A stretch of DNA of 64,000 nt from Candidatus Omnitrophota bacterium (GTDB taxonomy: Bacteria; Omnitrophota; Gorgyraeia; Tantalellales; Tantalellaceae): positions 7,382 to 71,381 of the forward strand of contig JBARQV010000025.1 in NCBI GenBank assembly GCA_049643885.1, written 5' to 3'. Numbering within the stretch: position 1 is the stretch's first letter; the number at the start of each line of letters is the position of its first letter. The position numbers were made by a program, and so were the translations under genes. Shown one piece after another: positions 40,257-62,216 of the stretch. Under the pieces are notes generated by a model. That model did no database searches, was not told the origin of the DNA, and saw only the letters and a program-made list of their open reading frames with translations.

Positions 40257-40306
40257 TCTTTACGCTACGGTTGCCTCAGCAACCCTTTACTCTGTATAGG
40301 TTTAAA

Positions 40307-40382
40307 TGGTACCCGCACTAGGGCTCGAACCTAGGACCCACTGATTAAGAGTCAGTTGCTCTACCAGCTGAGCTATGCGGGC
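40307..40382 (-). tRNA. tRNA-Lys (CTT)
   Basis: GCCCGCA-TA-GCTC-AGCTGGTA-GAGC-A-ACTGA-CTCTTAA-TCAGT-GGGTC-CTAGG-TTCGAGC-CCTAG-TGCGGGT-A-CCA. Confidence 0.88.
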
Positions 40383-41475: not shown

Positions 41476-41554
41476 CTACAAGGGTTATATATTTGTTAGG
41501 AATTAATATATAACATGAAAAGCGTAAATTGGCAACTATATTATAGGGTCAGGA

Positions 41555-42568
41555 CTACCACTCTCTCTGGAAAGCCAGATGCAGTATCTTCCGGATAAGC
41601 TTTTTGTAGGAAATCCCCGCCTTCCCCGCCGATTCAGCAAGTGCTTCTTTTGGCGCCAGAACGGGGTTGGCGTTAGCTTCAATAATAAAGACCTCTCCTT
41701 CGGGAGTCAGGCGGATATCGAACCTGCCGTAACCGTCTATCATCAGCGCCCGGTGCGCCCTCTTGCAGATACTGAAGATCTTCTCCGGGATGCCGTTTGG
41801 AAGCCGCCCGGAGAACTCATCCTTTATCCCCCACCTTTTTCTGTATTCCTTGTCCCACTTAGCTTTGTAAGTGGCCAGTTTGGGCTCGTCATCGGGGACC
41901 TGGGTGAACTTCATCTCCCGGATGGGTAGGATCCGCAATCTGGTATGCCCCAGAATGCTGACATACAATTCCCTTCCTTCGACGTATTCCTCGGCAATGG
42001 CGTCCATATTAAACCGCTCGTGTATGAATTCAACTCTTTCGCTCATGTCCTTTTCATTTTCCACGAACGAAGCCTGGGCTATGCCGGTAGAAGCCTCCTC
42101 CTGGAGAGGCTTTACCAGAAGCGGAAAGTTAAGTTTCTTCGGATGCCAGATACGCTTGCCCTTGTGAAAATTGTGGAATCCGGGAACCTTTATCCTGTGA
42201 TAGGTCAATATCTTTTTGGTAAGGGCCTTATTATTGCAGATCATGAGGCCGGCTGGACCGCAGCCGGTATAAGGTATTTCCAATAGCTCCAGGACAGAAG
42301 GGATATTTTTATCGAGAGACGCCTTTCCCAGGAAGATCTCGGTAAGATTGAAGACCACATCTGGCCTGTTTTCCTTGACCTCATGCAAAAGAAGACTTAT
42401 ATCGTCGTAAATGCCCAGTGTCCTGACTTCGTGTCCTGAACCCTCCAGGGCCTCGACAACCGAGGCTTCAGTAAGCCAGTCTTCATGCGCAAATTTTTTA
42501 CTGAAATCCTGATCTTTCGGAGGAGTCCCGTCGCTGTCAAACAGCACAAGGACCTTCAACTTGCTCAT
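41555..42568 (-). CDS. D-Ala-D-Ala ligase-like ATP-grasp enzyme
   Basis: LLVKPLQEEASTGI, EEYVEGRELYVSILG and DIRLTPEGEVFIIEANANP, an ATP-grasp of the Ddl subfamily. Its ATG overlaps the stop of the upstream HExxH gene. Confidence 0.75.
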   Translation of the reverse strand: MSKLKVLVLFDSDGTPPKDQDFSKKFAHEDWLTEASVVEALEGSGHEVRTLGIYDDISLLLHEVKENRPDVVFNLTEIFLGKASLDKNIPSVLELLEIPYTGCGPAGLMICNNKALTKKILTYHRIKVPGFHNFHKGKRIWHPKKLNFPLLVKPLQEEASTGIAQASFVENEKDMSERVEFIHERFNMDAIAEEYVEGRELYVSILGHTRLRILPIREMKFTQVPDDEPKLATYKAKWDKEYRKRWGIKDEFSGRLPNGIPEKIFSICKRAHRALMIDGYGRFDIRLTPEGEVFIIEANANPVLAPKEALAESAGKAGISYKKLIRKILHLAFQREW

Positions 42569-43587
42569 CTTTCCCTCCTGTACCTCCCGGCATAATGATA
42601 GTTCATTGTCTGGGCCGTGACATATACCGAGACCTTCAGGACCGTATCCATCTCGTCCGGTCCCGCTTTAAGTCCAAGTTCTTTACACCTTTCAACGAGA
42701 TCTTTCAATAATTCGTTTATTATGTATTTTTTCTCTCCCGACCACAAAGCCACGTAATTCAGTATCTCCTTCCTGTGTTTCCGGATCAGTACATACGCTT
42801 TCATGCCGGTCTTTTCATCCCCGGGAATAAAGATCTTGTTGAGATTGATGTCGTGAAAATCGGAATAATAATCAGCGTAAAGACGTTTCTTTTTTTTATA
42901 GTGAGTCTTCAGCGTAGCTCTCAGCCGGGAGATGGCCCAGTATTTTTCGCCCTTTGCTTTTTTAGGCGGCCGGCCGGCTATCTCCTTCATGAGTTTGTCG
43001 ACATACTCGAGTTTCCTCAACGCCTTCCAGCCTTTATATTTTTCCTTCCAATCGGACTGGGGATCAACCCAGACGGCGAAAGTCTCAGCGAAATCCTCAT
43101 CGGGATGATACTGGGCATACCACCTTTCCAGATGTATGACGTAATTTTTGCTATAGGGCCTGTATTTATATCTTTCCGGATAATCCTTTGAAAAAGGCCC
43201 GAAGATATTCTGCCACCGTTTCCTCTTGTACAGCATGTACGCGTAATTTAAAGCGTGGCCCATCTCGTGCCTTAAAAGCTTCATGCAATCGGCCTTTGTC
43301 CCGCCTTCTACCTCAAGGTCCATTTTGTATTCCAGCTTTCTAAGGCGCGGATGCGCCAGGAAAAAGGGTATGCCTATGACAGGTTCACCGTCGGGGCAAA
43401 GCCATTCATCGGCAAGATAACAGGGCGGGTGGAGATCGATGCCCCTTTCGGAAAGTTCCGCGTAAAGCTGGGAGACGCCTTCTTCCAGGGGCGTCCCTTC
43501 TATCTTGAGCTCCAAATCACGAAACCGCAGGGAAAGCAGCTCTTCGTCGCTTAGTTTATCAAGCTCTGATTGTGTGATCTTCTTCAT
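42565..43587 (-). CDS. HExxH zinc-metallopeptidase-like protein (family unassigned)
   Basis: LLRHEMGHALNY, with a third-ligand candidate in DEDFAETFAVW 45 residues downstream (gluzincin-like). It is translationally coupled (ATGA) to the Ddl-like ATP-grasp gene. Confidence 0.5.
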   Translation of the reverse strand: MKKITQSELDKLSDEELLSLRFRDLELKIEGTPLEEGVSQLYAELSERGIDLHPPCYLADEWLCPDGEPVIGIPFFLAHPRLRKLEYKMDLEVEGGTKADCMKLLRHEMGHALNYAYMLYKRKRWQNIFGPFSKDYPERYKYRPYSKNYVIHLERWYAQYHPDEDFAETFAVWVDPQSDWKEKYKGWKALRKLEYVDKLMKEIAGRPPKKAKGEKYWAISRLRATLKTHYKKKKRLYADYYSDFHDINLNKIFIPGDEKTGMKAYVLIRKHRKEILNYVALWSGEKKYIINELLKDLVERCKELGLKAGPDEMDTVLKVSVYVTAQTMNYHYAGRYRRER

Positions 43588-44803
43588 ATCCCCACTTCAC
43601 GTTAAGGGCTACCGACATCAGCGCGAGATAGTCGCACAGATGCCTCGTTATCAGAAAATTCCTCCTGGTATAATCCTTCGCGTTCTCTCCCATTTTTTTA
43701 GCAACAGCGGGATTGTTCAAAAGGTATCTTATCCGATACGCACAGCCCTCGACAGAATTGATGACGTATCCCGTCCTTCCGTAAATGATCTGCATGGTAA
43801 TGCCCCCGACCGCTCCGCCTATGACCGGTTTTCCTTTCCACATGGCCTCAGCCACGGTCAGGCCAAAACCTTCTTTCAAGGATTTCTGGAGCACTATCGT
43901 GGCCGCTCTTTGAAGAGCATTTATCTCTATATGCGCATCAGGCGGAAGGTCTAAAACATATATATCCTTGTCCTTTGAAGCTTTTTCCTTCACCGCGTTA
44001 AGAACTTGCGCTCCTTCGGGATCATCCGCCGCCCCGCCTCCCGCCAGCACCAGGCAGCAATCGTTATATTTCTTAACGAGACCGTACGCGGCTATAACAC
44101 CGAGAGGGTCCTTGAACTTATCAAATCGGGAAACCTGGAGGATCATGGGTTTATCCGAAGGTATCCTGTAACGCTCCAGGACTTGCTTTATCTCTTCTCC
44201 GCTCAACTCCCTGTTCTTGTCGCTAAGGGGATCTATCGACGGATAGATCAGGAACTGGGGGATCTCAAGTTTCTGGGCAAAACTCGGCAGGGAAAATATT
44301 GCAGCGTCGTAATGGTTAACGTACTGTTTGATGAACTGCCAGATCTTTCTCTGCGGACGTGAAACATCTATATGGCATCTCCATACCCATTTCGCGCCTT
44401 CGGGTTTTTTCTCGATGAATCCAGCCGGCTGTGGGTCATGGATGATCGCGAAATCCGATCCCAGCGGGATCCGTCCGCAATTTTCGCTGTTAACCCTCCT
44501 GTATTCTTCATACATCTCGTGAGTTATTTCTTCCTCGTCACCCTGCAGGGCATTATGAAAGGATTTTGTCGTCTTGTAAAAAAGCGGGCTGCCCGTGAGC
44601 ACTTCCCAGCGGGTTTTAATTCCCATTTCCTCAAAAAGTGGAACCAGGCGATGCAGCATCTCTGCCACTCCTCCGCCATAACGCGTCGAATTGACGTGTA
44701 GAAAAGACTTCCCTTTCAGGCTTTCGGAAAGTTTCTGTACCAGGTCCACTATCCCCGCGGGAGCCACTTCACGGTATGATTCAAGTGTTATTTTCCCTTT
44801 CAT
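43559..44803 (-). CDS. treT: TreT-like retaining glycosyltransferase (GT4; trehalose glycosyltransferring synthase family)
   Basis: FLHVNSTRYGGGVAEMLHRLVP, HDPQPA, WRCHID, VSRFD.FKD, DDPEG and EGFGLTVAEAMWKGKPVIG track the TreT signature blocks. Start set to MKGKITL (44803). Confidence 0.65.
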   Translation of the reverse strand: MKGKITLESYREVAPAGIVDLVQKLSESLKGKSFLHVNSTRYGGGVAEMLHRLVPLFEEMGIKTRWEVLTGSPLFYKTTKSFHNALQGDEEEITHEMYEEYRRVNSENCGRIPLGSDFAIIHDPQPAGFIEKKPEGAKWVWRCHIDVSRPQRKIWQFIKQYVNHYDAAIFSLPSFAQKLEIPQFLIYPSIDPLSDKNRELSGEEIKQVLERYRIPSDKPMILQVSRFDKFKDPLGVIAAYGLVKKYNDCCLVLAGGGAADDPEGAQVLNAVKEKASKDKDIYVLDLPPDAHIEINALQRAATIVLQKSLKEGFGLTVAEAMWKGKPVIGGAVGGITMQIIYGRTGYVINSVEGCAYRIRYLLNNPAVAKKMGENAKDYTRRNFLITRHLCDYLALMSVALNVKWGYEEDHTIRA

Positions 44804-45444
44804 CTTCCCATTTCCTTTTCGCACAATTCAACGATCTTAGTCCTTAATGATTCCAAGCTGTACATGTAATAGTCTATCCCTTCGACTTTCCCGGCAAGTT
44901 CATCAAGCCCGAGCACGTCCTTTAGCCATATCGAAAAATCGTTTCTCCCCCTTCTGGTCCGGAGCCTCGCCTCGTAAGTATGATAATATATAGCGCTCGC
45001 GTCAACGGTCCTCAGGGCCTCAGTAAAACTTTCCAGGTCGTTGACAGTGATGCCCATCGGGACCTCAATGATCCTTGACTGCATGAAATAGAAAGGAGAG
45101 CCGTAAACGACCGAAGGGACTATTTTTATCTCGGAAAGATGCTTATCGATGATGTCTATAAGATCGTTCCTTATGTCGTCCAATGTCTTGTCTCGCGAGG
45201 GCATGACCGACGCGAGTTTCTCGCCCAGCACGCGGTCCCTTACCTGTATAGCTGCCCAGTTGGCGAAATCGTTCGGGTATTGTCCGGCAAGATAATAATG
45301 CCTTAAAAAATAACTGTGAGTGTGAAAATATACAGAATCCAAGGGGACGTCCTCGATAAGCTCCATAAGCGCAAGTTCATCGTCCGCTTTCTTGCCGAGG
45401 AGTTCCTTTAATTCCATGCATCCTATGAATTCGAATTCTTTCAT
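44800..45444 (-). CDS. Conserved hypothetical protein co-transcribed with treT-like gene
   Basis: 214 aa, soluble, no recognised catalytic motif. Its stop overlaps the treT-like start. Confidence 0.45.
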   Translation of the reverse strand: MKEFEFIGCMELKELLGKKADDELALMELIEDVPLDSVYFHTHSYFLRHYYLAGQYPNDFANWAAIQVRDRVLGEKLASVMPSRDKTLDDIRNDLIDIIDKHLSEIKIVPSVVYGSPFYFMQSRIIEVPMGITVNDLESFTEALRTVDASAIYYHTYEARLRTRRGRNDFSIWLKDVLGLDELAGKVEGIDYYMYSLESLRTKIVELCEKEMGR

Positions 45445-45559
45445 CTTTCACTCCGTGAAAAATTGACTTTACTTTATCAACCTCGCCCGCACCCGACCTG
45501 CGGCCGCGACGAGCCCCTCGCGTCGTCAAGGGCTTAAGGACTGGCGCGCCCGGCAGCGC

Positions 45560-45575
45560 TGATCCGGCTACGATC
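45560..45575. repeat. 16-nt duplicate of the tRNA-Arg(TCG) 3' end
   Basis: tggcgcgcccggcag is identical to 45720-45734, the tRNA 3' acceptor/T-arm end, and lies 144 bp downstream of the tRNA gene. It looks like an attL/attR-type direct repeat. Confidence 0.6.
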
Positions 45576-45719
45576 CTCCTACTCGTCGGATTGCTTAACG
45601 CCGGCCCAGCATCAAACTTTCTGTCCATAAAGTTTGTGACTCTTTGCCTAAATTTTCTCATTTATGGCAAGAGCTCTTCCTCCGGCCATTTAAAGCTTGT
45701 TCTTCCAACAAGCTTTAAA

Positions 45720-45796
45720 TGGCGCGCCCGGCAGGACTCGAACCTGCGACCTACTGGTTCGAAGCCAGCTACTCTATCCAACTGAGCTACGGGCGC
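45720..45796 (-). tRNA. tRNA-Arg (TCG)
   Basis: GCGCCCG-TA-GCTC-AGTTGGATA-GAGT-A-GCTGG-CTTCGAA-CCAGT-AGGTC-GCAGG-TTCGAGT-CCTGC-CGGGCGC-G-CCA. Confidence 0.88.
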
Positions 45797-47474
45797 GCAA
45801 AACACATCCTACCGCTTCGAATATCATCCAAACTTCCAGAAGTAATATCATACCACCGATTATCGCAAGATTCCATTGTCCAGAACCGAAGAACCCTAAG
45901 ACATTGACCGTCAGTGCCCAGCTCGAAGTGATCATCATAAAAACCATAGGCACGGCCGTGGGCCACGCGTTCGATCCTTTTTTTATAAGGTAGATCGACG
46001 CCACAAGAAGCACAAGACCTGCAAGAAGCTGGTTGCTTGTCCCGAACAGCGGCCAGAGCATGAGGGCACCTCCCCCCCCGCCCTGCGCGAACGCCAGGGC
46101 TGCCGCCGCCCCTACCGCCAGCAGGGTCGCGGGATACCTTTTCTGTAATATCTTGATCTTGGAACTCACTGCCAGTTCGGTGATGACGTAACGCTGAACG
46201 CGGGTGGCCGTATCCAGTGTTGTCCCCGCGAAAGAAGCCACCAATACGCCCACGATGGCATGCCCGTACTTCAAGGGTATGCCGAGGCTTCCCAGCATAT
46301 TAGCGCTGCCCTCCACAAAAGCCGAAACCTTCGCGGTAAGTCCCTGGGCTGCAGCCCAGCTGGAATAGTGCAGGTTCCAGGCGGCAAATCCGGTCAGAAC
46401 CTCGCCTCCCTCGCCTTTTGTGTACATCCCGATACCTGCCGCTACCGCGATGATGACCAGAACAGCCAGAAGACCTTCGGTAAGCATTCCCCCGTAAGCT
46501 ATAAAATGGATGTCTTCCTCGTTTTTAAGCTGTTTGGAGCTGGTCCCTGAGCTTACCAGGGAGTGGAAACCCGAGATAGCGCCGCACGCAATGGTAATAA
46601 ATAAAAACGGTAAAATGGGCGGCGCTCCTTCCGGAGCCAGTTGGATGGCCGGAGCTACTACCACCGGACGGGCAACAAGGATCCCAAGCACAAGAAGCGA
46701 GATACCTATGATAAGCTGGTGTGAATTTATATAATCACGCGGCTGCAGAAGGCTCCATACCGGAAGGACGGAAGCAAAAAAAGCGTATATGAAAAGCAGG
46801 ATTATCCATATGGCCAAGGGTGAAAATATCCCTACTGCGGGCATGGTAAAAGGCATATGTACACCAATGGCGATCGATATATACATCAGTATAACGGCTA
46901 TGATCGACATCATGGTTATATTGATCTTTTTTTTGTAAGCAAGCCAGCCGACGGTCATGGCAATAGGGATCTGGACCCATACCGGAAAGACCGACTGGGG
47001 ATACATGCGAAAGATCAGGGCGATGACCATCCCGAAGATCGCGACGACGATCCACAAGGAAAAGAGGATCACGAAAAGAAAAAGCATCTTTACCCGGGAG
47101 TTGATTATCCTGCTGGATAACTCACCGATAGATACCCCCTTGTTCCTGGTGGACATTATAAGGGCGGCGTAATCGTGCACTGCCCCGGCGAAGATGGACC
47201 CCAGGATTATCCATATAAGAGCGGGAACCCACCCCCATATAATAGCTATGGCCGGCCCGACTATCGGACCGGTCCCGGCGATCGAAGCGAAATGATGTCC
47301 GAAAAGGACTTCCTTATTGGTCGGGATATAGTCGATATCGTCCCTCAGCTCTTCGCTCGGCACGGGAGTAGCGGGATCAGCACGGAATATTTTCCTCGCT
47401 ATAAAGTTCCCGTAAAAGTGATACGCGAGGCCAAGAGCCGCGAAAGCGATTAGTACCAACCATACTGAACTCAA
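45774..47474 (-). CDS. cstA: Carbon starvation protein CstA (peptide/pyruvate transporter family)
   Basis: HHFASIAGTGPIVGPAIA, about 16 TM segments and FLFITIACGAISGFH. It is called with a TTG start. The annotated stop lies inside the tRNA-Arg gene (last 22 nt), so the real 3' end is uncertain. Confidence 0.75.
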   Translation of the reverse strand: MSSVWLVLIAFAALGLAYHFYGNFIARKIFRADPATPVPSEELRDDIDYIPTNKEVLFGHHFASIAGTGPIVGPAIAIIWGWVPALIWIILGSIFAGAVHDYAALIMSTRNKGVSIGELSSRIINSRVKMLFLFVILFSLWIVVAIFGMVIALIFRMYPQSVFPVWVQIPIAMTVGWLAYKKKINITMMSIIAVILMYISIAIGVHMPFTMPAVGIFSPLAIWIILLFIYAFFASVLPVWSLLQPRDYINSHQLIIGISLLVLGILVARPVVVAPAIQLAPEGAPPILPFLFITIACGAISGFHSLVSSGTSSKQLKNEEDIHFIAYGGMLTEGLLAVLVIIAVAAGIGMYTKGEGGEVLTGFAAWNLHYSSWAAAQGLTAKVSAFVEGSANMLGSLGIPLKYGHAIVGVLVASFAGTTLDTATRVQRYVITELAVSSKIKILQKRYPATLLAVGAAAALAFAQGGGGGALMLWPLFGTSNQLLAGLVLLVASIYLIKKGSNAWPTAVPMVFMMITSSWALTVNVLGFFGSGQWNLAIIGGMILLLEVWMIFEAVGCVLRARSSVG

Positions 47475-47500
47475 GATAACTCCCTTTAAGTCGGTATTTG

Positions 47501-47600
47501 TATGTCATCCCGGACCCGCCGAAGGCGGGATCCGGGACCAAATAATATTGTTATATGATCCCGGGTCTCGGCCTGAGGCCTCGCCCGGGATGACATATTG
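47501..47600. repeat. Family A REP/MITE-like element (copy A2, complete with terminal inverted repeats)
   Basis: tatgtcatcccggaCCCGCCGAAGGCGGGatccgggaccaaataatattgttatatgatcccgggtctcggcctgaggcctcgcccgggatgacatattg. The ends caatatgtcatcccgg / ccgggatgacatattg are perfect TIRs. Confidence 0.75.
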
Positions 47601-47601
47601 T

Positions 47602-49167
47602 CTATCTCTTCTTCCAGGCGTAATACCTAAGACTGTCCTCCAGCCACTCGCGGCCGTTACGGACGAATTCCGTCCACCGCGAGGCAAGGCACATGCCCCT
47701 GGCAGTATCCGCGTTCCCCTCCCCTATCTTCTGCGAGACCGTGGCCAGGTCAAGCTGCAGGCGGATCGGAACCCGGTTCTTTTCATCTTCCGGAAGCAAT
47801 TTCGCAAGGCTGACCAGCGCGTCCGCTCCTTTAAGGAGTATATCAAAAAGGACTTTCTCTCCGCCTATCGCCCCAACCATGATCTCGTTTACCGGTCCCA
47901 GCCGAAGTATTTCCAGTTCCCCGGTCTGTTTATTGGAAATGTTGTCAGCTCCAAGGTATCCTATACCTTCTTCGGCAAAACCAAGCTGGAATATCCTGTG
48001 ATAAATGGTCTCAAGCCTGGGGCCGTTACTCGACAGGCGGTAATGCGATCTCAGCCCCCAGAGCCCGAAATCTATATGCTCGTTTACCAAAGGGATATAC
48101 CTCCTCTGGAATTTCTTTTCAAATATTTCTAGTGAAGAAACAAGTTTTTCTTCCGCTAGCTGCCGGTCTATGATCATTTTCGCGAGCTTCTCCCTGCGTT
48201 TCCCCGCGCATCCTTCGAGGTAATCTTTGAGTATTTTCAGGGCTACCGCGTCATCCGCGCCCTCGATGGGAAGATCCAGATGCAGGTAACTTGACCTCAT
48301 CTTTTCATCCGAGAAAAAGAGCCGGTATATCCATAAAAGCTCCTTCATCTTTGCTTCATTCGACGTATCGAGATCGATAAATGTCGGATGGATCTCCGAA
48401 ATATCTCCCGAAACCTTCGATAGGTCGGGTATGATGTAACCATCCCCGGCCTTGGTGATCCGGAAACCCCCAAGCCCGCCTCCGCCTTCATGGGGTTTGA
48501 CAAAAAAGGTGTCATCTCCGGTTTCCTCTATAAGTTCATCCACAGCATCAAACATATCCCCGACAACGGCCTTTATACTCTTCCCCTCGACAGGTATTTT
48601 TTTATACATGGCGACCTTATCCCAATTTTTGCCGTCATTAGAAAGCAGCCTGTACGTGCTGTCCTTGTCGGAAAAAACGCTCCCGGGGGCCGTCTCCTGA
48701 CCCGGAACTATAACGGCGCCCATACTCTCCAGATCCATCGCCACGGATACGTTATAAACATTTTTATCCACGCACTGGCTCATTACAAGCGTACTCCCGG
48801 GATACTCGTTCACTTCCTTCATCAGCTCGTCATGCGTGTTGACAACGGTCGATCGTATTTTCCATCCTTTCTCCGCGCACAACTCATTAAAAACACGGGC
48901 AGTCTCATAGGATGTGGGTAGATCGTCATGAGAAGCATTTATGATCACGATCTTTTTAGGAAGTTTATTCAATGATGGTTCCTTTTCCAGGCAGAATTCC
49001 CTGAAAAGGTCCTTCTCTCCAAGGAGCGAGTTGAACAAGTCAATAAGCCTGGTATTATAATCCCCTCCTTCACCGTCAAATATAAGTGACCGCAAATAGA
49101 ACGGCGCCTGGTAAGGGTCATCGCCCTTGTATCCGGTCACATAATATTTCGGGTCTCTTTCTATCAT
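47602..49167 (-). CDS. ATP-grasp-like ligase, 521 aa (unassigned family)
   Basis: Central FFVKPHEGGGGLGGFRI (ATP-grasp Lys and Gly-rich loop), a preceding Rossmann-like pre-domain (KKIVIINASHDD) and a long helical C-terminal extension. It starts 3 nt after the stop of the 482-aa ATP-grasp gene. Confidence 0.45.
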   Translation of the reverse strand: MIERDPKYYVTGYKGDDPYQAPFYLRSLIFDGEGGDYNTRLIDLFNSLLGEKDLFREFCLEKEPSLNKLPKKIVIINASHDDLPTSYETARVFNELCAEKGWKIRSTVVNTHDELMKEVNEYPGSTLVMSQCVDKNVYNVSVAMDLESMGAVIVPGQETAPGSVFSDKDSTYRLLSNDGKNWDKVAMYKKIPVEGKSIKAVVGDMFDAVDELIEETGDDTFFVKPHEGGGGLGGFRITKAGDGYIIPDLSKVSGDISEIHPTFIDLDTSNEAKMKELLWIYRLFFSDEKMRSSYLHLDLPIEGADDAVALKILKDYLEGCAGKRREKLAKMIIDRQLAEEKLVSSLEIFEKKFQRRYIPLVNEHIDFGLWGLRSHYRLSSNGPRLETIYHRIFQLGFAEEGIGYLGADNISNKQTGELEILRLGPVNEIMVGAIGGEKVLFDILLKGADALVSLAKLLPEDEKNRVPIRLQLDLATVSQKIGEGNADTARGMCLASRWTEFVRNGREWLEDSLRYYAWKKR

Positions 49168-49170
49168 TTT

Positions 49171-50619
49171 TTACCCGCTGCTTACCAGCTCGACCTCGCT
49201 CGCACTTCTTAAGCCGAGTTTATTATAAACTCTTGTTATTATCCCCCTCGCCTCGGGAGTCAGTTTTTTCCTGTTCGAAGGGTCAAGCGCTTCTCTCAAA
49301 AATTGTATCTTGCAGATAGACGCGTTCGGTTCGATGACCGAATACTGCCTGGGAACAGAACAAGTGACCAGTATATCATCCGGCCCGCGGCACTCGCCGA
49401 TGAAAGCGCTTTCTTTCCGCAGCACGAACTTTCTTTCCTCTTTCCGGTATATCCCCGGCTTGAGGTTTCCGGTAGCAACGTTCCTCTCCAGGCGGTTATG
49501 CAGGATTACCTGGCTTCCTTTTAAAGGATACATGAGTTCATCGTAAGGAAACTTCCTGAGATACTCCCTCATTACCCTGTCGTTTTTCTGGAGAAATTCC
49601 GCTATATGCAGCAAGAAAAGCATCCCCTTGCGTCCGGGCTGCATGCTTGTGAGCGAAGTGTAAAGGGAAGTCGAGTTCTGGAACCTGGGGTTTATCTCGA
49701 CCGGATATACAGTTTCGTCCTTGACCACAAAATCCATACCGAAGATGCCGCGAAAACCGGACCGGGACATCCATTCCCCGATGGCCCGCATGTTGCCGAC
49801 GGCCCCGTCTATTATTTTCCGCGGGAGCCCGCAGGCCGAAGCATAATCATTACCGCAGAACGCGGACGGAAAATTACTGCACTCCGGGCGGCCGGTGATC
49901 TGGACGGAAGGGAAAGCGCTGAAAACAGCCGGCCCTTTGTCCGTCGAGATTATGATGGCATTGCCGTTTAACGAGTACCCGTTTATATACCTGCGCATGG
50001 TCACTGTCTGATGGGGATAATTTCGACGCAGGCGGTTATATTCTTTTTCCTCATTGATGATAAAAGTAAAATTCCCGCTTGAACCGTATGGGAACTGTAT
50101 GACAAAAGGCAGGGACAACTCTTCGCGGAGGTCCCGGAACGTCTTCTTTTCCAGTTTTTCCACCAGACCCGGGATGCGGGGCAGGCCAAGGTCCCTCAGG
50201 CTTTTTTGAAGAAGCAGTTTATTATCAAAATGTTTTTTCAGTTTCTCCGGCATGGCGTAGATCCTGGGCCTTTTTGACAATGAGCTTCCGTTCTTCTCAA
50301 GTTTCCTCACAGAACGGTAACATAGGATATTCGCCGGTTTCTTGAAACTGTTCAGATAACTGAATATCTCGCGCCCGAGCGCACCCTTGAAACTTTCGTT
50401 CAGGTCCTCGTTAGACCAGTTCTTGCGAGCGCCTGTCTGCTTTTCTACCGAAAAGACATCCTCTTCTCTGAAATAATACGGGATATCGGTCCCGTAATCA
50501 CAGCTGATGATGAAATCCAGCGGGAGGACCCGGTTTATCCCGGCCGCGTCATGAGCGCGCTGCCCCATCCACCCCCACGGGCCATATTTTTCCTTTAGGT
50601 ATTCGACAATTTTCTTCAT
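49171..50619 (-). CDS. ATP-grasp ligase, 482 aa
   Basis: LPFVIQFPYGSSGNFTFII and GIFGMDFVVKDETVYPVEINPRFQNS, the ATP-grasp B and C-domain motifs, with an N-terminal extension of about 130 aa. Confidence 0.6.
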   Translation of the reverse strand: MKKIVEYLKEKYGPWGWMGQRAHDAAGINRVLPLDFIISCDYGTDIPYYFREEDVFSVEKQTGARKNWSNEDLNESFKGALGREIFSYLNSFKKPANILCYRSVRKLEKNGSSLSKRPRIYAMPEKLKKHFDNKLLLQKSLRDLGLPRIPGLVEKLEKKTFRDLREELSLPFVIQFPYGSSGNFTFIINEEKEYNRLRRNYPHQTVTMRRYINGYSLNGNAIIISTDKGPAVFSAFPSVQITGRPECSNFPSAFCGNDYASACGLPRKIIDGAVGNMRAIGEWMSRSGFRGIFGMDFVVKDETVYPVEINPRFQNSTSLYTSLTSMQPGRKGMLFLLHIAEFLQKNDRVMREYLRKFPYDELMYPLKGSQVILHNRLERNVATGNLKPGIYRKEERKFVLRKESAFIGECRGPDDILVTCSVPRQYSVIEPNASICKIQFLREALDPSNRKKLTPEARGIITRVYNKLGLRSASEVELVSSG

Positions 50620-50624
50620 AATAA

Positions 50625-50667
50625 TATGTCATCCCGGAATTCGCCGAAGGCGAATATCCGGGATCAA
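50625..50667. repeat. Family A element, half copy (A3)
   Basis: tatgtcatcccggaATTCGCCGAAGGCGAATatccgggatcaa. It lies in the 44-nt gap between the DUF1704 and ATP-grasp genes and starts 5 nt from the ATP-grasp ATG. Confidence 0.65.
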
Positions 50668-51764
50668 TTAACAATAAACCCCGGCAAGTACTTCGGCGGC
50701 TTCAAGATACCCTCGTCGAGCAGCTTCTTTACAATGCCGACATCTCTCAGGCCGATCTTGCCTATATAAAGAATACTTAAATTTCCTCGATTTTCAACAT
50801 ATCGCCGCATTTTAGGCCACCCGCTGATATAGTGGTAATCGCGGGGGAAACCACCCGGGTTAGATGTGTCCTCGATCCCCCTCTTCGCCCTTTCAGCCAG
50901 CCTGTAGGCCAGGTAATCCGGAAAAAACTCTCTGAGGGCCAGGAACATATCGTAAAACGAGACCTTGAGGCAAAGATCCGCCGCGAGTGTCCTTCCCGCG
51001 TAAAGCTTCATCTGCCGGGTGTCCGTCTCCAGGCACCCCGCCTTCTCTTCAGCAAGAATGGCCAGCCCTTCTTCCGTCTCATCATACCCGGCGAGCCCGT
51101 CCCGGAATATCTTGTAAGGCTGCTCTTCTCCGTTGATACCCCTGTAGACGTGCACCTCGATCTCGTGGACCTTCAACCTTTCGACTTCTTCTTTAGTGTA
51201 ATTGATGGCCGAATTTATATAGACCGTCCTGTCCTTTGATGAAACGGTGATCTTGGGAACGATCTTTCTGCTCAGGACGACTTCCCATCCGATGCCTTTT
51301 TCTTCCAGTCCCTTCCGCAGGACGGAAGCCATCTCCTCCGGCGGCACCGTTTCTTCGGGAAACTCGTATCGCCTTTCCCTGCTCTCTGAAAGGACATTCC
51401 CTGCGATGTCCAGGCATTCTCCGTCCGGCGCGCCGTACAACCTTACCGCGTTCACGGCGAACTGCGGATCGGTGCATTTGATGAGTTCCAGCTGCTCTTG
51501 TATAAAAACGATCTTGTCGATAAAGAGCCTGTGAATATCGTTGCTTTCGTCAAGGGCGTCCCTGGTCTCGCGAAGCCACCTTTCCTGGTAAAAGAACTCG
51601 ACGTCCTTATACTTGTAGACCGGATTATAACGGGCGCCCTTCTTGAAATTCGAAAAGAATTTCTCCTTTTCCTCTTTCTGGTTCAAAGGGGTCAGGTAAG
51701 AATAAAAATCGACCTCTCGCATGATCTCGCTTATGCGATTATCTATCCCGTGCAAATTTATCAT
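50664..51764 (-). CDS. DUF1704/MATCAP-like metallocarboxypeptidase-fold protein (QEGLA-motif family)
   Basis: An HExxxH-type motif (KVHEIEVHVY) and the family's signature ETEEGLAIL (QEGLA-type). Size is about 366 aa. Confidence 0.65.
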   Translation of the reverse strand: MINLHGIDNRISEIMREVDFYSYLTPLNQKEEKEKFFSNFKKGARYNPVYKYKDVEFFYQERWLRETRDALDESNDIHRLFIDKIVFIQEQLELIKCTDPQFAVNAVRLYGAPDGECLDIAGNVLSESRERRYEFPEETVPPEEMASVLRKGLEEKGIGWEVVLSRKIVPKITVSSKDRTVYINSAINYTKEEVERLKVHEIEVHVYRGINGEEQPYKIFRDGLAGYDETEEGLAILAEEKAGCLETDTRQMKLYAGRTLAADLCLKVSFYDMFLALREFFPDYLAYRLAERAKRGIEDTSNPGGFPRDYHYISGWPKMRRYVENRGNLSILYIGKIGLRDVGIVKKLLDEGILKPPKYLPGFIVN

Positions 51765-51765
51765 C

Positions 51766-52449
51766 TTAACGTGGTCTTCCTACCGGCATCATATATACAG
51801 GAGTTTCTTTTTCCGTTCCCAGCACCCCGGCCACTTCCCTGTCCTTGAAAGCGCCGATCATTACCGTCCCGAGCCCCAGGCCTTCGGCCTGGAGGTGGAC
51901 ATTCTGCCCCAGGTGCCCGGCATCCATCGGGACATACATGGAGCGCCCGCGCTCACCGTACCTGCGGGTGGTCTTATCGTAATCTGCCGTTATAACGATC
52001 GTAACAGGCGCTTCACCGACCATGTATTGGCCGCGCGCAGCTTTTCTTAATTCGTTCCTTAGATCTCCCCTCCTCAGTAGAGTAAGGGAATTTTCTCTCC
52101 AGTTGTAACGGTATATTCCCGCCTCAAGCCCGGTGACATTCCCGGCGACCAGAAATATCTCTAATGGATATGACGCCCCGGCCGATGGATAGGACCTGGT
52201 AGGGCCCGTCACACCATCTACGGTCTGACCTCCCGCAGCCCAGAGAAGCTGGGAGACCTCTTCCAAGGTCAAGGGGGCACCGGTGAAGCTGCGGATCGAT
52301 TTTCTTTTGAAGATCGCCTGTTCGACTGATACCTTGCCTTCATACCTGGGCTTGGGAAGGCGAACTACGTCGCCTTGTGTAAGGCCATTTTCAGAAAAGA
52401 ATGCTACAAGTACCGCAAAAAATAAGATCAAAATTACTTTTGCCCGCAT
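51766..52449 (-). CDS. SagB-type dehydrogenase/nitroreductase-fold protein with signal peptide
   Basis: Nitroreductase-fold motifs RKSIRSF, PSAGASYPLEIF and GHLGQNVHLQAEGLGLG. The N-terminal hydrophobic leader is MRAKVILILFFAVLVAFF. Confidence 0.6.
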   Translation of the reverse strand: MRAKVILILFFAVLVAFFSENGLTQGDVVRLPKPRYEGKVSVEQAIFKRKSIRSFTGAPLTLEEVSQLLWAAGGQTVDGVTGPTRSYPSAGASYPLEIFLVAGNVTGLEAGIYRYNWRENSLTLLRRGDLRNELRKAARGQYMVGEAPVTIVITADYDKTTRRYGERGRSMYVPMDAGHLGQNVHLQAEGLGLGTVMIGAFKDREVAGVLGTEKETPVYMMPVGRPR

Positions 52450-52495
52450 GTCCCCCTCCTTTGAAACTTAAGTATATGATATATCAGGGATAAAA

Positions 52496-53896
52496 TCAAA
52501 CTGCATGGAATTCGTAATCGCTTTCTTTGAGTAACGTTTTTCGCCACAACTCGACAGGTTCCATGCAAAGGTAGACCCAACATTTTGCATCAAGAGACCT
52601 TATCCATTCGATTATTTTGTTATACATGTGGATCCTCAGTTTCCTGGGATAACGAAGTTTGCCGTCGGTATCAAGGAAGAACTCACCCTGGTAGAAAATA
52701 AGATTATCCTCAAACCTGTTCTCCGCGGCCTGTTTTAACCCCGGCGTATAGCGTAACGTACCGAGACTTACCCAGGCCGTGTTCTTCCGGATCAGTTCCT
52801 TTGAGAACATCTCCTCGACCACTGTTTTATACTCCTTCTCCCACCCGGGATAATATACTATCGGGTCAAAATGGAAACCGACCTTGTATCCCCTTTTGGC
52901 CGCGCGGATAGCCGCATCTATCCTTTCAGGGACGCTGGCCCCACCCTTCTCGTACTTCCCTGCGACCCTTTCAGTGTTAATGGACCAGGATATGACCACA
53001 TTGTCATGCGGATCCTGCTCTAAACAATTGTCGATCCGGCTCACTTTGGTCTTTAGTTCCAAAACCAGGTTTTTTCGTTTTTTGAAAAAGGGTATCAGGT
53101 ACGACGAATAGTTTGTATACCCGTCAAAAGCGAGGGAGTCCGTAAATTCACCGGTTCCTATCCTCGTCCTGCTTTTAACCTTTTTATCAAAATCTTCTGC
53201 ATATTTATAATAATCCTCTATATTAGCGGGCAGGATCATGCCTGGAGCGTTGCTGTAAGTCTGCAGGTAGCAGTACGAGCAATCAATAGGACAGCCGAAC
53301 CCTATGTTCAGTATCCAGTAGCCGCACCTTTTATACCCTTTAGTGCAGGGACACACCTTGATGAAAGCGGCTCTATTCTTCACCAGGAAGGCGGTTTCTC
53401 TTCTTGAATTGTAAGGGGCTACTGTATCTTCCCGGGATAACGAGTCTAATCCTTCCTTGAGACTGTCGATAGAAATAATTTCGGCGTGGGGGAAGTGCCG
53501 GATAAAAAGGCGGGTCCATTCCAGGTCCTGCACGCTTTTCTCTACAAAAATATTCGAGGGATGCAGCTCAAGATCCCAGGCCGGGCACTCCTCTTGGACC
53601 GCACCTATCATCGCGGGCATTATATGAGGATCGTCATTCGGCCCTATGGTCGGATACCTTATCTCCAGAAGTCTCGTCTTGAACCTGCGGAAAAGCTCCC
53701 CCCTGCCTTCTTCCATGAGTTTATTGATCTCCGCGCGTTCAAAAACCTCCGCGGGGGTGACATTTCCGGCCCGGCATATCTCGAAGATAAGCCTTACCAG
53801 TTCATTCCTTTTATTAACGCCAAGCTTTATGGGAAGTGTTTCGTTTAAAAGGACTTCGACCTTTTCGGCGAAACGCCTGTTGTCCGCGATAGTCAT
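52496..53896 (-). CDS. Spore-photoproduct-lyase-like radical SAM enzyme with about 150-aa N-terminal extension
   Basis: GCPIDCSYCYLQ (CxxxCxxC) and downstream SPL/DNA-repair radical-SAM family blocks. The N-terminal 150 aa have no match to SPL. Confidence 0.7.
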   Translation of the reverse strand: MTIADNRRFAEKVEVLLNETLPIKLGVNKRNELVRLIFEICRAGNVTPAEVFERAEINKLMEEGRGELFRRFKTRLLEIRYPTIGPNDDPHIMPAMIGAVQEECPAWDLELHPSNIFVEKSVQDLEWTRLFIRHFPHAEIISIDSLKEGLDSLSREDTVAPYNSRRETAFLVKNRAAFIKVCPCTKGYKRCGYWILNIGFGCPIDCSYCYLQTYSNAPGMILPANIEDYYKYAEDFDKKVKSRTRIGTGEFTDSLAFDGYTNYSSYLIPFFKKRKNLVLELKTKVSRIDNCLEQDPHDNVVISWSINTERVAGKYEKGGASVPERIDAAIRAAKRGYKVGFHFDPIVYYPGWEKEYKTVVEEMFSKELIRKNTAWVSLGTLRYTPGLKQAAENRFEDNLIFYQGEFFLDTDGKLRYPRKLRIHMYNKIIEWIRSLDAKCWVYLCMEPVELWRKTLLKESDYEFHAV

Positions 53897-53948
53897 GGGG
53901 GTATTATAACGTATTGGCTACGGGGTGTCGACGGGTTTTGGGCAGGCC

Positions 53949-54161
53949 TTATTTTTTTCGGCGTCCCAGTTCAAGGTACAGGAAAGCGGAGAAAAAAAGC
54001 ACGCTGGCCGCAAGATAAAGCAGGTTGTCTTGGATCGCGGAGCCATCTATCGCCACGTTGGCATAGAAACCCCAGAAAAAAAGCGCGGCCAGGAAACACA
54101 AGACGACCCTTACCAGCATCCTCTGCTGACTTGTAAGCTCGTTAAACCATTTTTGAAGCAT
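53949..54161 (-). CDS. Small 2-TM membrane protein
   Basis: 70 aa, two hydrophobic helices and a basic C-terminus. Confidence 0.3.
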   Translation of the reverse strand: MLQKWFNELTSQQRMLVRVVLCFLAALFFWGFYANVAIDGSAIQDNLLYLAASVLFFSAFLYLELGRRKK

Positions 54162-54193
54162 GAAGGACTCCTATCGTTAAGCGGATCTTTGCA

Positions 54194-54853
54194 TCAAAAA
54201 ATTGCCGTAAGCTTGATGCCTATGACATTATAGCCGGTCCATTTATCTTTTTTTTCGCTGTTCTGCAGAAGATAATAAATATCGGCCTTCAGGTACTTGA
54301 TGATCTTCATGGTGAATCCGGCGTAAAAGCGGTTGCGGTAGAATTTCTCACCCTGGAAATCTACAAATATCTCGTCCGCGAGATAGGGCTGGATATCGGA
54401 TTCCGTCCATTTCCATGGGAATTGGGCCGTTAATTTATTCCTATACTGCCATTTGCAGTCTTCATCCTCAAAGTCCCGGTATTCAAGACGGTTCCTGTCG
54501 CTGAGCTTGAACCCGGACAGGTCCCATTTCAGCGTCGCGTCGGCGTGGGGCCTGTTTTCTTCCTTCCATTTTCCTTTTTTCTTTTCATAAATGAGCCGAT
54601 AAAATAAGCCGAGGTCAAGATTACCGTTTACCTTCAACGTGAATCCGCCGTCCGTATGAGTGTAATACAACTCGGAAATATCTCCCCCGAACCTCAACTC
54701 TTCCTCGACCTTGACTTTAAGGTTTTCGTTCAACCTTGCTTCTATACTATCGGTGTTCCAAAGCTGCAAATCCCCGTTCTCGTAAGCAGATGCCGGCATG
54801 ATCCCCGTTAAGATCAGACCCATGACCAGACCCGCACTTATTAATGCTCTCAT
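54194..54853 (-). CDS. Secreted beta-barrel-like protein (DUF2490-like)
   Basis: Start set to MRALISAGLVMGLILTG (a signal peptide). Alternating aromatic/polar beta-strand pattern, ending in F. Confidence 0.45.
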   Translation of the reverse strand: MRALISAGLVMGLILTGIMPASAYENGDLQLWNTDSIEARLNENLKVKVEEELRFGGDISELYYTHTDGGFTLKVNGNLDLGLFYRLIYEKKKGKWKEENRPHADATLKWDLSGFKLSDRNRLEYRDFEDEDCKWQYRNKLTAQFPWKWTESDIQPYLADEIFVDFQGEKFYRNRFYAGFTMKIIKYLKADIYYLLQNSEKKDKWTGYNVIGIKLTAIF

Positions 54854-54883
54854 GCTTTCCAAATCGACAAGGGTTTTTAAAAA

Positions 54884-54960
<77 letters not shown>

Positions 54961-54987
54961 ACCGTACATATAGAGCAGTGCTTTTAA

Positions 54988-55008
54988 TGGTGCGGGTGGA
55001 GGGATTTG
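54988..55008. repeat. 21-nt duplicate of the tRNA-Leu(TAG) 3' end
   Basis: tggtgcgggtggagggatttg is identical to 55196-55216, the tRNA-Leu 3' end, and lies 187 bp downstream of that tRNA. Confidence 0.6.
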
Positions 55009-55195
55009 GCGCCTCCGTCCCGCTAAACATGTTTTTATTCCTCGCTTCCGCTCGTCAAAAAACATATCGGGACTCCGGTCGGCCATCCGCCGCTTCGGTT
55101 GTGGTCGTTTCTTCGCCAGCTCAGAAACTCCCTTTATTAAAACCTCAGCGGCTCCCTTCAACTCCCCACCATTCTATGCAATTACTGGCGAAAAG

Positions 55196-55279
55196 TGGTG
55201 CGGGTGGAGGGATTTGAACCCCCACGGATAAACCACTGGCTCCTAAGGCCAGCGCGTCTGCCAATTCCGCCACACCCGC
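55196..55279 (-). tRNA. tRNA-Leu (TAG)
   Basis: GCGGGTG-TG-GCGG-AATTGGCAGA-CGC-GCTGGC-CTTAGGA-GCCAG-TGGTTTATCCGTGG (long variable arm)-GGG-TTCAAAT-CCC-TCCACCCGC-A-CCA. Confidence 0.85.
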
Positions 55280-55323
55280 CTAAAACAGACTTCAGACATC
55301 AGTCTGTTGTCTGTGGTCTGAAA

Positions 55324-55402
55324 TGGTCGGGAAGGCGGGATTTGAACCCGCGACCCCCTGCTCCCAAAGCAGGTGCGCTAGCCAGGCTGCGCTACTTCCC
55401 GC
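55324..55402 (-). tRNA. tRNA-Pro (TGG)
   Basis: GCGGGAAGTAGCGCAGCCTGGCTAGCGCACCTGC-TTTGGGA-GCAGGGGGTCGCGGGTTCAAATCCCGCCTTCCCGACCA. Confidence 0.85.
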
Positions 55403-55409
55403 AAAAATA

Positions 55410-55486
55410 TGGGGTGAGCGATGGGGATTGAACCCACGACCACCTGAGCCACAGTCAGGCGCTCTACCAGCTGAGCTACGCTCACC
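55410..55486 (-). tRNA. tRNA-His (GTG) with encoded G-1
   Basis: G-GTGAGCG-TA-GCTC-AGCTGGTA-GAGC-G-CCTGA-CTGTGGC-TCAGG-TGGTC-GTGGG-TTCAATC-CCCAT-CGCTCAC-C-CCA. The extra 5' G pairs with C73, as is characteristic of bacterial tRNA-His. Confidence 0.88.
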
Positions 55487-55498
55487 ACGATTAACGAT

Positions 55499-55527
55499 AT
55501 TCTATGTGCTAAGGATATGTAAGTCAA
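55499..55527 (-). promoter_or_regulatory. Putative sigma70 promoter of the His-Pro-Leu-Arg tRNA operon
   Basis: Minus strand: TTGACT, a 17-nt spacer, TAGAAT, then 8 nt to the tRNA-His G-1. An A/T-rich UP-like tract lies upstream. Confidence 0.5.
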
Positions 55528-58422: not shown

Positions 58423-58464
58423 TACAACTCCTCTCTATGTTCATCGATCGTATATCGTCGGTCG

Positions 58465-58588
58465 TATGTCATCCCGGAATTCGCCGAAATAGAAATATGT
58501 CATCCCGGAAATCCTGAGCGAAGCGAAGGATTATCCGGGACCACATAATAATTTTATTTGATCCCCGCTTTCGCGGGGATGACATATT
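58465..58588. repeat. Family A element, composite copy A4 (half module plus complete element)
   Basis: tatgtcatcccggaattcgccgaaatagaa, a truncated module matching A3, is followed by a full element atatgtcatcccggaAATCCTGAGCGAAGCGAAGGATTatccgggaccacataataattttatttgatccccgctttcgcggggatgacatattg. Confidence 0.7.
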
Positions 58589-58605
58589 GTCTTTCTTTTG
58601 AACCC

Positions 58606-59131: not shown

Positions 59132-59171
59132 ATATGTCATCCCGGACGGCCATTAGGCCGATCCGGGATCA
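59132..59171. repeat. Family A element, half copy A5
   Basis: atatgtcatcccggaCGGCCATTAGGCCGatccgggatcaaataata fills the 38-nt alpha-beta intergenic space. It begins 2 nt from the beta-subunit ATG and overlaps the last 3 codons of the alpha subunit. Confidence 0.65.
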
Positions 59172-60820: not shown

Positions 60821-60877
60821 CAGGGTTATTATAAAGGATTAAAGGTAATTGGTAAAGGTGATAAGTGGCGCGGGCGA

Positions 60878-60937
60878 AGGGATTTTTCTGTTTTCGTGCT
60901 TAAAATGAGCACTACACCACGGTTCCACCACGTTTTA
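60878..60937. repeat. About 55-bp repeated motif, family F copy 1
   Basis: gggatttttctgttttcgtgcttaaaatgagcactacaccacggttccaccacgtttt resembles 62164-62214. The shared blocks are ttttcgtgct.aaat and ccaccacg.ttt. Confidence 0.45.
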
Positions 60938-60942
60938 ATATA

Positions 60943-61971: not shown

Positions 61972-61988
61972 GTTTGCTCCTTCATTTA

Positions 61989-62030: not shown

Positions 62031-62102
62031 AAGACGTAAACAAAAACTGTAAAAAAGGTTACGACTTATCACATATATTAATTTTTGAGTTGTAAACTGC
62101 TT

Positions 62103-62140: not shown

Positions 62141-62163
62141 TTGCAATTTTTGGTGGAGGTGCC

Positions 62164-62214: not shown

Positions 62215-62216
62215 TC

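Follow-up and report, generated by a model that had tools for sequence, protein, structure and literature searches.

Enzymes that add residues to protein tails have several precedents, namely RimK on ribosomal protein S6, LysX on LysW and TTL/TTLL on tubulin, and MATCAP was identified as a tubulin tail-trimming enzyme only in 2022-23. The few MATCAP-family enzymes that have been characterised biochemically have protein C-terminal tails as substrates, and their activities are tubulin detyrosination and deglutamylation (PMC10499314). A sequence-only reading of the locus described here proposed an add/remove cycle on a C-terminus and held that bacteria offered no characterised example of one; this is wrong in general, as RimK/RimB act on S6 (PMC11957791). 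Annotated proteobacterial replicons, moreover, already contain a MATCAP-ligase pairing that had passed without remark, FGase-QEGLA-'glutathione synthase', with a QEGLA/MATCAP protein beside a GshB-like ATP-grasp enzyme and FGase on plasmids of Shinella, Mesorhizobium and Pararhizobium, so the peptidase–ligase link recurs. In the literature that we searched, DUF1704 and QEGLA receive incidental mention only. We found no publication there linking DUF1704 with ATP-grasp enzymes, though the 2009 Iyer/Aravind amidoligase survey, the likeliest site of a prior mention, might still contain an earlier description.

The locus lies in a window of 64,000 nt (the whole stretch of DNA that was analysed) from the genome of an uncultured Omnitrophota bacterium, and consists of minus-strand genes for a radical SAM protein, a nitroreductase-fold protein, a MATCAP peptidase, two ATP-grasp ligases (AG482 and G521) and a CstA-family transporter. 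The MATCAP–AG482–G521 trio within it is a real module conserved across phyla.

Features of the locus and its flanks, in window coordinates
Feature	Coordinates	Strand	Remarks
Radical SAM ORF, 466 aa	52496-53896	minus	ORF list; first operon gene
Nitroreductase ORF, 227 aa	51766-52449	minus	ORF list
MATCAP ORF, 366 aa	50664-51764	minus	ORF list
AG482 ORF, 482 aa	49171-50619	minus	ORF list
G521 ORF, 521 aa	47602-49167	minus	ORF list
CstA ORF, 566 aa	45774-47474	minus	PF02554
Promoter-like site TCGACA-17-TATAAT	53903..53931	minus	11/12 consensus matches; consensus scan, predicted only
Intergenic hairpin, REP-like dispersed repeat family	50620..50663		core 50625-50648
REP-like repeat copies (families D4, D8, D9)	47500..47595		G521-CstA spacer

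Counted by rising coordinate from G521, the spacers among the five ORFs are 3, 44, 1 and 46 nt, and the five minus-strand ORFs, motifs, gaps of 3, 44 and 1 nt and REP-like insertion that the sequence-only reading had reported are all confirmed. The 44-nt gap between AG482 and MATCAP holds a 13-bp hairpin whose 24-nt core is 100% identical to a copy at 58465-58488, and relatives occur in the window at 26874, 47500 and 59132; because copies of the repeat lie elsewhere in the window, the label 'REP-like' is justified. Copies of this kind also explain why the spacer between G521 and CstA is 127 nt here and about 8-30 nt in many relatives. Transcription is predicted to start at the promoter-like site just ahead of the start codon of the radical SAM gene, and the unit most likely extends into CstA, beyond the gene set considered previously. 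A 70-aa ORF upstream of the radical SAM gene encodes a two-helix membrane protein without a significant family match. An Rfam scan of 45000-55500 for riboswitches or leader RNAs returned tRNAs only, and PADLOC gave no defence-system match for any of the five proteins.

Judged by its sequence, the 366-aa protein is a genuine member of the MATCAP/DUF1704 metallopeptidases and a predicted zinc carboxypeptidase. It matches the MATCAP profile PF08014 at 1.7e-49 (169.2 bits against a cutoff of 27) over residues 40-363 of 366, and has HEIEVH at 200-205 and EEGLA at 231-235, which supply a gluzincin-type HExxxH and the downstream zinc-ligand glutamate of a (Q/E)EGLA motif. Human MATCAP (KIAA0895L, PDB 7z5g) is matched by phmmer at 1.8e-12, with the two motifs aligned to HEIGTH and EEGLA of the human protein. 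The profile score, the motifs and the human match thus uphold the original DUF1704 assignment. The protein falls outside TIGR02421 (the hypothetical equivalog 'flavohemoglobin expression-modulating QEGLA motif protein'), scoring 202.7 bits against a cutoff of 338.65. Of 44 orthologues, 42 retain both catalytic motifs; the gene is a remnant in locus L020 and absent in L026, L027, L032 and L066. MATCAP is therefore likely to be an active, optional component of the module, as far as its sequences tell, and its dispensability in some lineages fits turnover or editing better than biosynthesis. The link between MATCAP and ligases is clade-specific, since three distant homologues of MATCAP, archaeal and others, stand alone.

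Both proteins that the sequence-only reading had called ATP-grasp ligases hold up as such, AG482 by profile and fold, G521 by fold without a profile match. AG482 matches ATP-grasp_3 (Pfam PF02655, 1e-9) and has the three-domain ATP-grasp fold with conserved Mg/ATP residues (D/E...E-x-N-x-R). Its fold is PylC/PurK/PurT/L-amino-acid-ligase-like, and its closest structural matches are the L-amino-acid ligases BacD, RizA and BL00235, together with PGM1, LdmS, BesA, PylC and GshB, so that it groups with small-molecule ligases and not with RimK or TTL. Against NCBIfam equivalogs of two-step small-peptide or conjugate ligase families it scores far below the cutoffs, with no membership at sequence level. 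G521 has no sequence-profile match to known ATP-grasp families (Pfam to E 10, NCBIfam and PDB phmmer), its own profile recovers only its own family from 1.84 billion proteins, and hhalign finds no significant relation of that profile to AG482 or to the GshB-like neighbour ligase (PF02955) of the proteobacterial loci. Its fold has the ATP-grasp Lys, a Gly-rich loop (the segment VKPHEGGGGLGGF at 223-235) and D...E-x-N metal ligands; the core resembles DcsG, LysX/ArgX, Ddl, RimK and GshB, and to it are added a helical region at the N-terminus and an insert of about 100 aa that is also helical. We can say with confidence that G521 is an ATP-grasp enzyme by fold and forms a sequence-orphan family, a previously unrecognised one that lies outside every profile library. 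In both ligases the full ATP-grasp catalytic set occupies invariant columns, and both look catalytically active on this basis. Neither has its closest affinity to TTL/TTLL (PF03133), both being closer to other clades than to TTL, nor does either belong with the RimK type (PF08443/TIGR00768), PF08443 matching neither.

Across 65 species genomes, a DUF1704 gene recurs together with two ATP-grasp genes. The conserved core runs MATCAP–AG482–G521, and its carriers are Omnitrophota, Desulfobacterales, Elusimicrobiota, Chlamydiota and a small number of further lineages. AG482 is the immediate upstream neighbour of G521 in all of the approximately 59 loci with room, which is far beyond chance, and the stop and start codons of the two genes often overlap (median gap -4 nt outside Omnitrophota). 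Core order is kept across phyla at only 30-45% identity while all flanking genes differ, and each of the two ligase families is tiny, with a distribution that matches the other's. When the ORFs of 40 aa or more in 67 loci were clustered against one another, no conserved small ORF of the RiPP-precursor kind emerged outside the known genes, and across 65 loci neither a carrier protein nor a candidate substrate gene goes with the module; this answers the suggestion to look in the flanks for a short precursor peptide. The remaining ORF clusters in that comparison are antisense shadows.

The sequence-only reading had counted a SagB-type nitroreductase in the operon and placed an SPL-like radical SAM protein beside it, but both fall outside the core; together with CstA they are additions seen only in Omnitrophota. 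Every one of the 22 Omnitrophota loci with room has the radical SAM gene and other lineages lack it, and in L066 this gene and AG482 share a 4-nt overlap. Its product matches SPL (PF20903, 3.6e-25) and Radical_SAM (PF04055), has the CxxxCxxC motif as CPIDCSYC at 202-209, and matches the SPL structure 4rh0 at 2.4e-17. It scores 119.4 bits against the spore photoproduct lyase equivalog TIGR04070 (cutoff 400), and by sequence it belongs to the broader PF20903 family, outside that equivalog. A Glu aligns at the position of what we take to be the H-atom-donor Cys of Geobacillus SPL. The novel N-domain, put earlier at 150 aa, is shorter: relative to SPL the extension is about 110 aa, the TIGR04070 alignment beginning at residue 113, and it has no family match. 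The 227-aa protein matches Nitroreductase (PF00881, 6e-30), the SagB domain TIGR03605 (137.1 bits, cutoff 78.4) and PDB 3eo7 (1e-34). Its N-terminus is strongly hydrophobic and signal-like, a signal-peptide-like or lipobox N-terminus occurs in 13 of 13 Omnitrophota orthologues, and we predict that this flavoprotein is exported. Its gene is found in about 13 of 22 Omnitrophota loci, being missing, for example, in L011, L021, L025, L030 and L037. We considered an azoline-forming RiPP system with a SagB/McbC oxidase and rejected it: the neighbours include no YcaO/cyclodehydratase and no precursor ORF, and at 227 aa the protein is short, with export predicted. The CstA-family peptide/pyruvate transporter (PF02554, 6e-146) is encoded in 22 Omnitrophota loci, mostly directly downstream of G521, with a median spacer of about 14 nt.

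What might such a module do? We tentatively favour a model in which the trio builds a short, amide-linked small-molecule product that is trimmed by MATCAP. Two different ATP-grasp ligases would act in succession, each via an acyl-phosphate intermediate, with AG482 (L-amino-acid-ligase/PylC/PurK-type fold) and G521 (GshB/RimK/LysX/Ddl/DcsG-type core) joining free amino-acid-like building blocks. The product would most likely be a di- or tripeptide-like metabolite, assembled by a logic that may be comparable to glutathione synthesis or to dipeptide synthesis by L-amino-acid ligases, and the MATCAP zinc carboxypeptidase would remove the C-terminal residue of product or precursor for turnover, editing or activation. 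The folds, the intact catalytic residues, the operon structure and the conservation across phyla are observed, whereas we infer this order of reactions, which substrates are used and that the product is a small molecule; we lean towards a small peptide rather than a protein tail as the substrate. In its Omnitrophota form the module sits in a longer operon with the radical SAM gene at the head, often a nitroreductase predicted to be exported, and the CstA transporter last, a setting that suggests modification of building blocks and movement of a small molecule across the membrane.

The small-peptide model is consistent with the catalytic sets kept by both ligases, the tight coupling of AG482 and G521 in every locus with room, the CstA linkage in 22 Omnitrophota loci, and a MATCAP whose motifs are nearly always intact and which some lineages have lost. 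In the other bacterial MATCAP setting the partners, a GshB-type ligase and an N-formylglutamate amidohydrolase, belong to families known for small-molecule substrates, which also suits the model. That no substrate or carrier gene is conserved near the module also fits, but is weak evidence, as the gene for S6, the target of RimK, is likewise not adjacent to rimK. Against the model, product, substrate and activity are all predicted, the radical SAM/nitroreductase/CstA linkage holds in one phylum and is perhaps partly inherited gene order, and those MATCAP enzymes that are characterised act on protein C-terminal tails (PMC10499314). The alternative first proposed is a protein-tail cycle, in which one or both ligases would add residues to a housekeeping protein encoded elsewhere and MATCAP would remove them. 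We consider such a cycle possible but unlikely. It would account for the homology to human tubulin carboxypeptidase with aligned catalytic motifs, for deglutamylation within the MATCAP family (PMC10499314) and for a self-contained module, as expected for a universal protein target, and RimK/RimB shows that bacteria run such cycles (PMC11957791). It leaves the need for two different ligases without a reason, a conserved neighbour that could serve as substrate or carrier is lacking, and some lineages keep the module without its MATCAP. Of the add/remove model as first proposed, MATCAP, the two ATP-grasps and the conserved trio stand, whereas the grouping of AG482 with small-molecule ligases, not RimK or TTL, speaks against it. 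In a bolder version, to which we give a little less credence still, the tubulin tyrosination/glutamylation cycle would have a prokaryotic forerunner in the trio, whose ligases would write a short C-terminal tail on a conserved protein for MATCAP to erase; if so, MATCAP writer-eraser logic would be older than eukaryotes, and the trio would represent a new reversible post-translational modification in bacteria.

The two ligases might instead alternate residues on a poly-amino-acid storage chain that MATCAP degrades from the C-terminus when carbon or nitrogen is needed. Cyanophycin synthetase offers the analogy, with two active sites that alternate in adding two residues. Two distinct ligases that are always co-encoded and translationally coupled, a MATCAP of the exopeptidase type, a linked carbon-starvation transporter (CstA) in Omnitrophota and the ability of RimK-type enzymes to make free poly-glutamate (PMC11957791) would all suit a polymer, but the likeness to cyanophycin synthetase is limited to the generic ATP-grasp fold, with no Mur-ligase or primer-binding domain, and the idea rests purely on analogy; we think it improbable. 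Most improbable of all, in our estimation, is inherited gene order among genes of unrelated function, with, for instance, the radical SAM protein a DNA-repair lyase, MATCAP a general peptidase and the ligases in separate pathways. The radical SAM, nitroreductase and CstA genes are indeed linked within one phylum only, and the more distant MATCAP homologues stand alone, but for the three-gene core this explanation is disfavoured by an order kept across phyla at 30-45% identity amid entirely different flanking genes, by overlapping stop and start codons, and by two tiny ligase families with identical distribution.

One bacterial MATCAP clade is thus bound to an operon that also encodes two ATP-dependent amide ligases, and a second clade is tied to a GshB-like ligase; because each is linked to ligases, the ancestral context of the family would be one in which a ligase makes and MATCAP trims. 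The trio offers a concrete three-gene system, which can be reconstituted, for finding the native substrate of bacterial MATCAPs. Depending on what that substrate is, it would lead either to a new small peptide metabolite of anaerobic phyla that are poorly known or to a new way in which bacteria reversibly modify protein tails.

Among known systems, the proteobacterial QEGLA loci share with the window a MATCAP-domain protein co-encoded with an ATP-grasp enzyme of the GshB/RimK structural group. Their QEGLA proteins measure approximately 620-660 aa against 366 aa for the window MATCAP, and either carry an extension at the N-terminus or are fused to FGase; these loci have a single ligase (PF02955) and FGase but no equivalent of AG482, whereas the window has two ligases. 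The eukaryotic MATCAP/TMCP proteins (KIAA0895L and KIAA0895) with TTL/TTLL share a truly homologous peptidase, and the tubulin cycle likewise links a MATCAP-type carboxypeptidase functionally to ATP-grasp amide ligases. RimK/RimB (RimABK), acting on S6, differs in that its peptidase is a retropepsin-like aspartic protease and not a MATCAP metallopeptidase, and in having one ligase where the trio has two. Two-step ATP-grasp small-peptide pathways (L-amino-acid ligases, PylC, GshB) provide the best structural matches of AG482. By an analogy of our own, the Omnitrophota combination of radical SAM protein, oxidoreductase and ATP-grasp enzyme is formally reminiscent of PylB/PylD/PylC in pyrrolysine synthesis, although the window radical SAM protein is SPL-type rather than PylB-type and its nitroreductase is predicted to be exported. 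Set beside these systems, the trio is a variant of a known ATP-grasp/peptidase operon theme.

The core of the operon is an ordered set of three genes that recurs across phyla. A scan of one genome per species recovered 65 loci. In tblastn searches of these loci with the window proteins, and in clustering of their ORFs, the 482-aa ATP-grasp ligase (AG482) lies immediately 5' of the 521-aa orphan ATP-grasp (G521) in every locus with room for both (~59 loci), while the DUF1704 metallopeptidase (MATCAP) lies immediately 5' of AG482 in ~44. These loci come from Omnitrophota, Desulfobacterales, Elusimicrobiota, Chlamydiota and several MAGs with other phylum labels; the KSB1 contig stops before any MATCAP gene would be visible. 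Across lineages the core proteins share 30-45% identity, their genes are closely spaced or overlapping (AG482-G521 median -4 nt outside Omnitrophota), the flanking genes are all different, and ORF clustering of the loci yielded no small ORF or carrier gene common to the lineages. In the window, the five minus-strand ORFs of the sequence-only reading (521, 482, 366, 227 and 466 aa) are separated by 3, 44, 1 and 46 nt, every motif it quoted is present, and profile scans (Pfam, NCBIfam) agreed with its assignments for four of the five proteins; the closest homologs are in Candidatus Omnitrophota MAGs (66-76% identity), and Omnitrophota contigs carry the locus in identical form.

The SagB nitroreductase gene, which had been read as a member of the set, and the radical SAM gene next to it proved to be confined to Omnitrophota and to lie outside the conserved core. 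There the order is radical SAM-(nitroreductase)-MATCAP-AG482-G521-CstA, with radical SAM and the CstA transporter gene each found in 22 loci and the nitroreductase in 13. The radical SAM protein matches SPL (PF20903) and Radical_SAM profiles, carries CxxxCxxC and matches SPL structures at 2e-17, but scores far under the SPL equivalog cutoff (119 vs 400 bits), has Glu aligned with the SPL H-donor Cys, and bears an N-terminal extension of ~110 aa with no family match; identity as an SPL repair gene was rejected. A strong promoter-like site sits directly 5' of its gene in the window. Between the radical SAM gene and DUF2490 lies a 70-aa ORF (53949-54161, minus strand). It has an RBS, its product is predicted to form two hydrophobic helices, and the source contigs annotate it as a gene too; a family search gave it no significant match. 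The nitroreductase is a short SagB-domain protein (PF00881; TIGR03605, 137 bits vs cutoff 78.4) whose signal-like N-terminus is kept in 13/13 orthologs, one with a lipobox; a RiPP/SagB system was rejected for the operon. Some Omnitrophota have lost MATCAP: four loci (L026, L027, L032, L066) are without it, the radical SAM gene in L066 overlapping AG482 by 4 nt, and in another (L020, 2115-2252) a 45-aa ORF with recognizable MATCAP C-terminal sequence, between radical SAM and AG482, shows that the gene decayed recently in that lineage. Elusimicrobiota loci (L060 5030-12110; L056 4378-7154; L068; L061) have NikR upstream of the module; downstream, a corrinoid adenosyltransferase (CobA/BtuR) is accompanied by a periplasmic DUF2092/thioredoxin-like protein of 710 aa. 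This setting is specific to the lineage and may point to a link with a metal or cofactor.

The MATCAP protein matches PF08014 (1.7e-49) and, by phmmer, human MATCAP structures (KIAA0895L; 7z5g, 7z5h, 7z6s; 1.8e-12), with its HExxxH and EEGLA aligned to the KIAA0895L motifs. The TIGR02421 QEGLA system was rejected as its identity, with a score below cutoff and a different architecture. AG482 matches ATP-grasp_3 (PF02655, 1e-9). G521 has no match in Pfam (E <=10), NCBIfam or PDB sequences, and its family is very small and stands apart. It comprises 169 clusters at 90% identity, and a profile search of 1.84 billion proteins gave just 46 representatives and no bridge to other ATP-grasp families. 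The motif-based guess that it is an ATP-grasp was right, on structural rather than profile evidence. Both ligases stand as catalytically intact ATP-grasp enzymes from different clades; both fail the TTL test, and membership of a TTL/MATCAP system was therefore rejected.

A different pairing occurs in Proteobacteria, where tblastn against plasmids found 127 QEGLA genes. In Shinella, Mesorhizobium and Pararhizobium, FGase is followed by a protein of 617-633 aa whose C-terminal domain is MATCAP and then by a GshB-type ATP-grasp (PF02955/PF02951), whose annotation as a genuine glutathione synthase is probably wrong. More distant MATCAP homologs, archaeal and others, stand alone, and the peptidase-ligase partnership is therefore recurrent but clade-specific.

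The "REP-like" element noted in the 44-nt spacer is a genuine dispersed repeat: it forms a hairpin whose 24-nt core is identical at 58465-58488, with diverged copies at 26874, 47500 and 59132, and the G521-CstA spacer holds further copies. The repeats of this family are short, with core ...TATGTCATCCCGGA... and CCCGG stems, and two copies have an identical 24-mer in common. Separately, near-identical 71-nt palindromes (14695-14765, 28313-28383, 29168-29238; one pair 99% identical) and a ~180-nt segment repeated at ~90% identity 23.1 kb apart (6185-6361 vs 29289-29469) could mark the termini of an element that is mobile or duplicated. tRNA-Arg genes (45720-45796, 54884-54960) mark both ends of the DUF2490...CstA block, with tRNA clusters nearby (40181-40382, Gly and Lys; 55196-55485, Leu, Pro and His). 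GC falls from ~0.49 to 0.37-0.41 at the end of the window (60001-64000), where the DNA may be of foreign origin or differ in composition. Downstream of the operon on the same strand, a second peptidase/ATP-grasp pair (40531-45444) may belong to a separate sugar/peptide-conjugate or compatible-solute cluster.

Features in the window and in homologous plasmid loci (L handles)
Feature	Position	Strand	Remark
REP-like palindromic repeats	26874-26971, 47500-47610, 50625-50648, 58464-58599, 59132-59155		intergenic spacers
Peptidase_Mx-like protein	42565-43587	-	
Ddl-like ATP-grasp	41555-42568	-	
TreT-type glycosyltransferase	43559-44824	-	flanks second peptidase/ATP-grasp pair
DUF5752	44800-45444	-	flanks second peptidase/ATP-grasp pair
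GH130 phosphorylase	40531-41475	-	flanks second peptidase/ATP-grasp pair
Proteobacterial plasmid three-gene units, FGase / QEGLA (N-extension + MATCAP) / GshB-like	L077 4451-8193; L078; L079		
Vibrio plasmid, FGase and MATCAP fused in one protein	L076 5116-7107		

At the level of predicted proteins, these comparisons establish that both ATP-grasp ligases and the MATCAP carboxypeptidase are intact and that the three are coupled in operons in several phyla. We infer that AG482 and G521 would form amide bonds one after the other and that MATCAP would take off the C-terminal residue of their product. That product may be a free small peptide or amino-acid conjugate, which we tentatively favor because the structural relatives of AG482 are small-molecule ligases throughout, the module travels without a substrate gene, CstA is tightly linked in Omnitrophota, and the counterpart in Proteobacteria works with GshB-like and FGase enzymes. 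The sequence-only reading was sound as observation, and its interpretation, an add/remove cycle on a C-terminus or synthesis and turnover of a small peptide, is supported only in part. Such a cycle on a protein tail is viable if rather unlikely: the characterized MATCAP/TMCP enzymes act on protein tails by trimming and deglutamylation (PMC10499314), G521 resembles LysX, ArgX and RimK, and RimK/RimB offers a bacterial precedent (PMC11957791). We consider a poly-amino-acid storage system improbable, and coincidental synteny more improbable still.

The module is real, conserved and experimentally tractable, and it bears on the origin of MATCAP. No description of it was found in the searchable literature; the amidoligase survey of 2009, outside that coverage, could touch on contexts of DUF1704. 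It belongs to a known general kind, the operon of an ATP-grasp amidoligase plus a dedicated peptidase; what is new is the combination of MATCAP with an L-amino-acid-ligase-like ligase and an orphan ATP-grasp.
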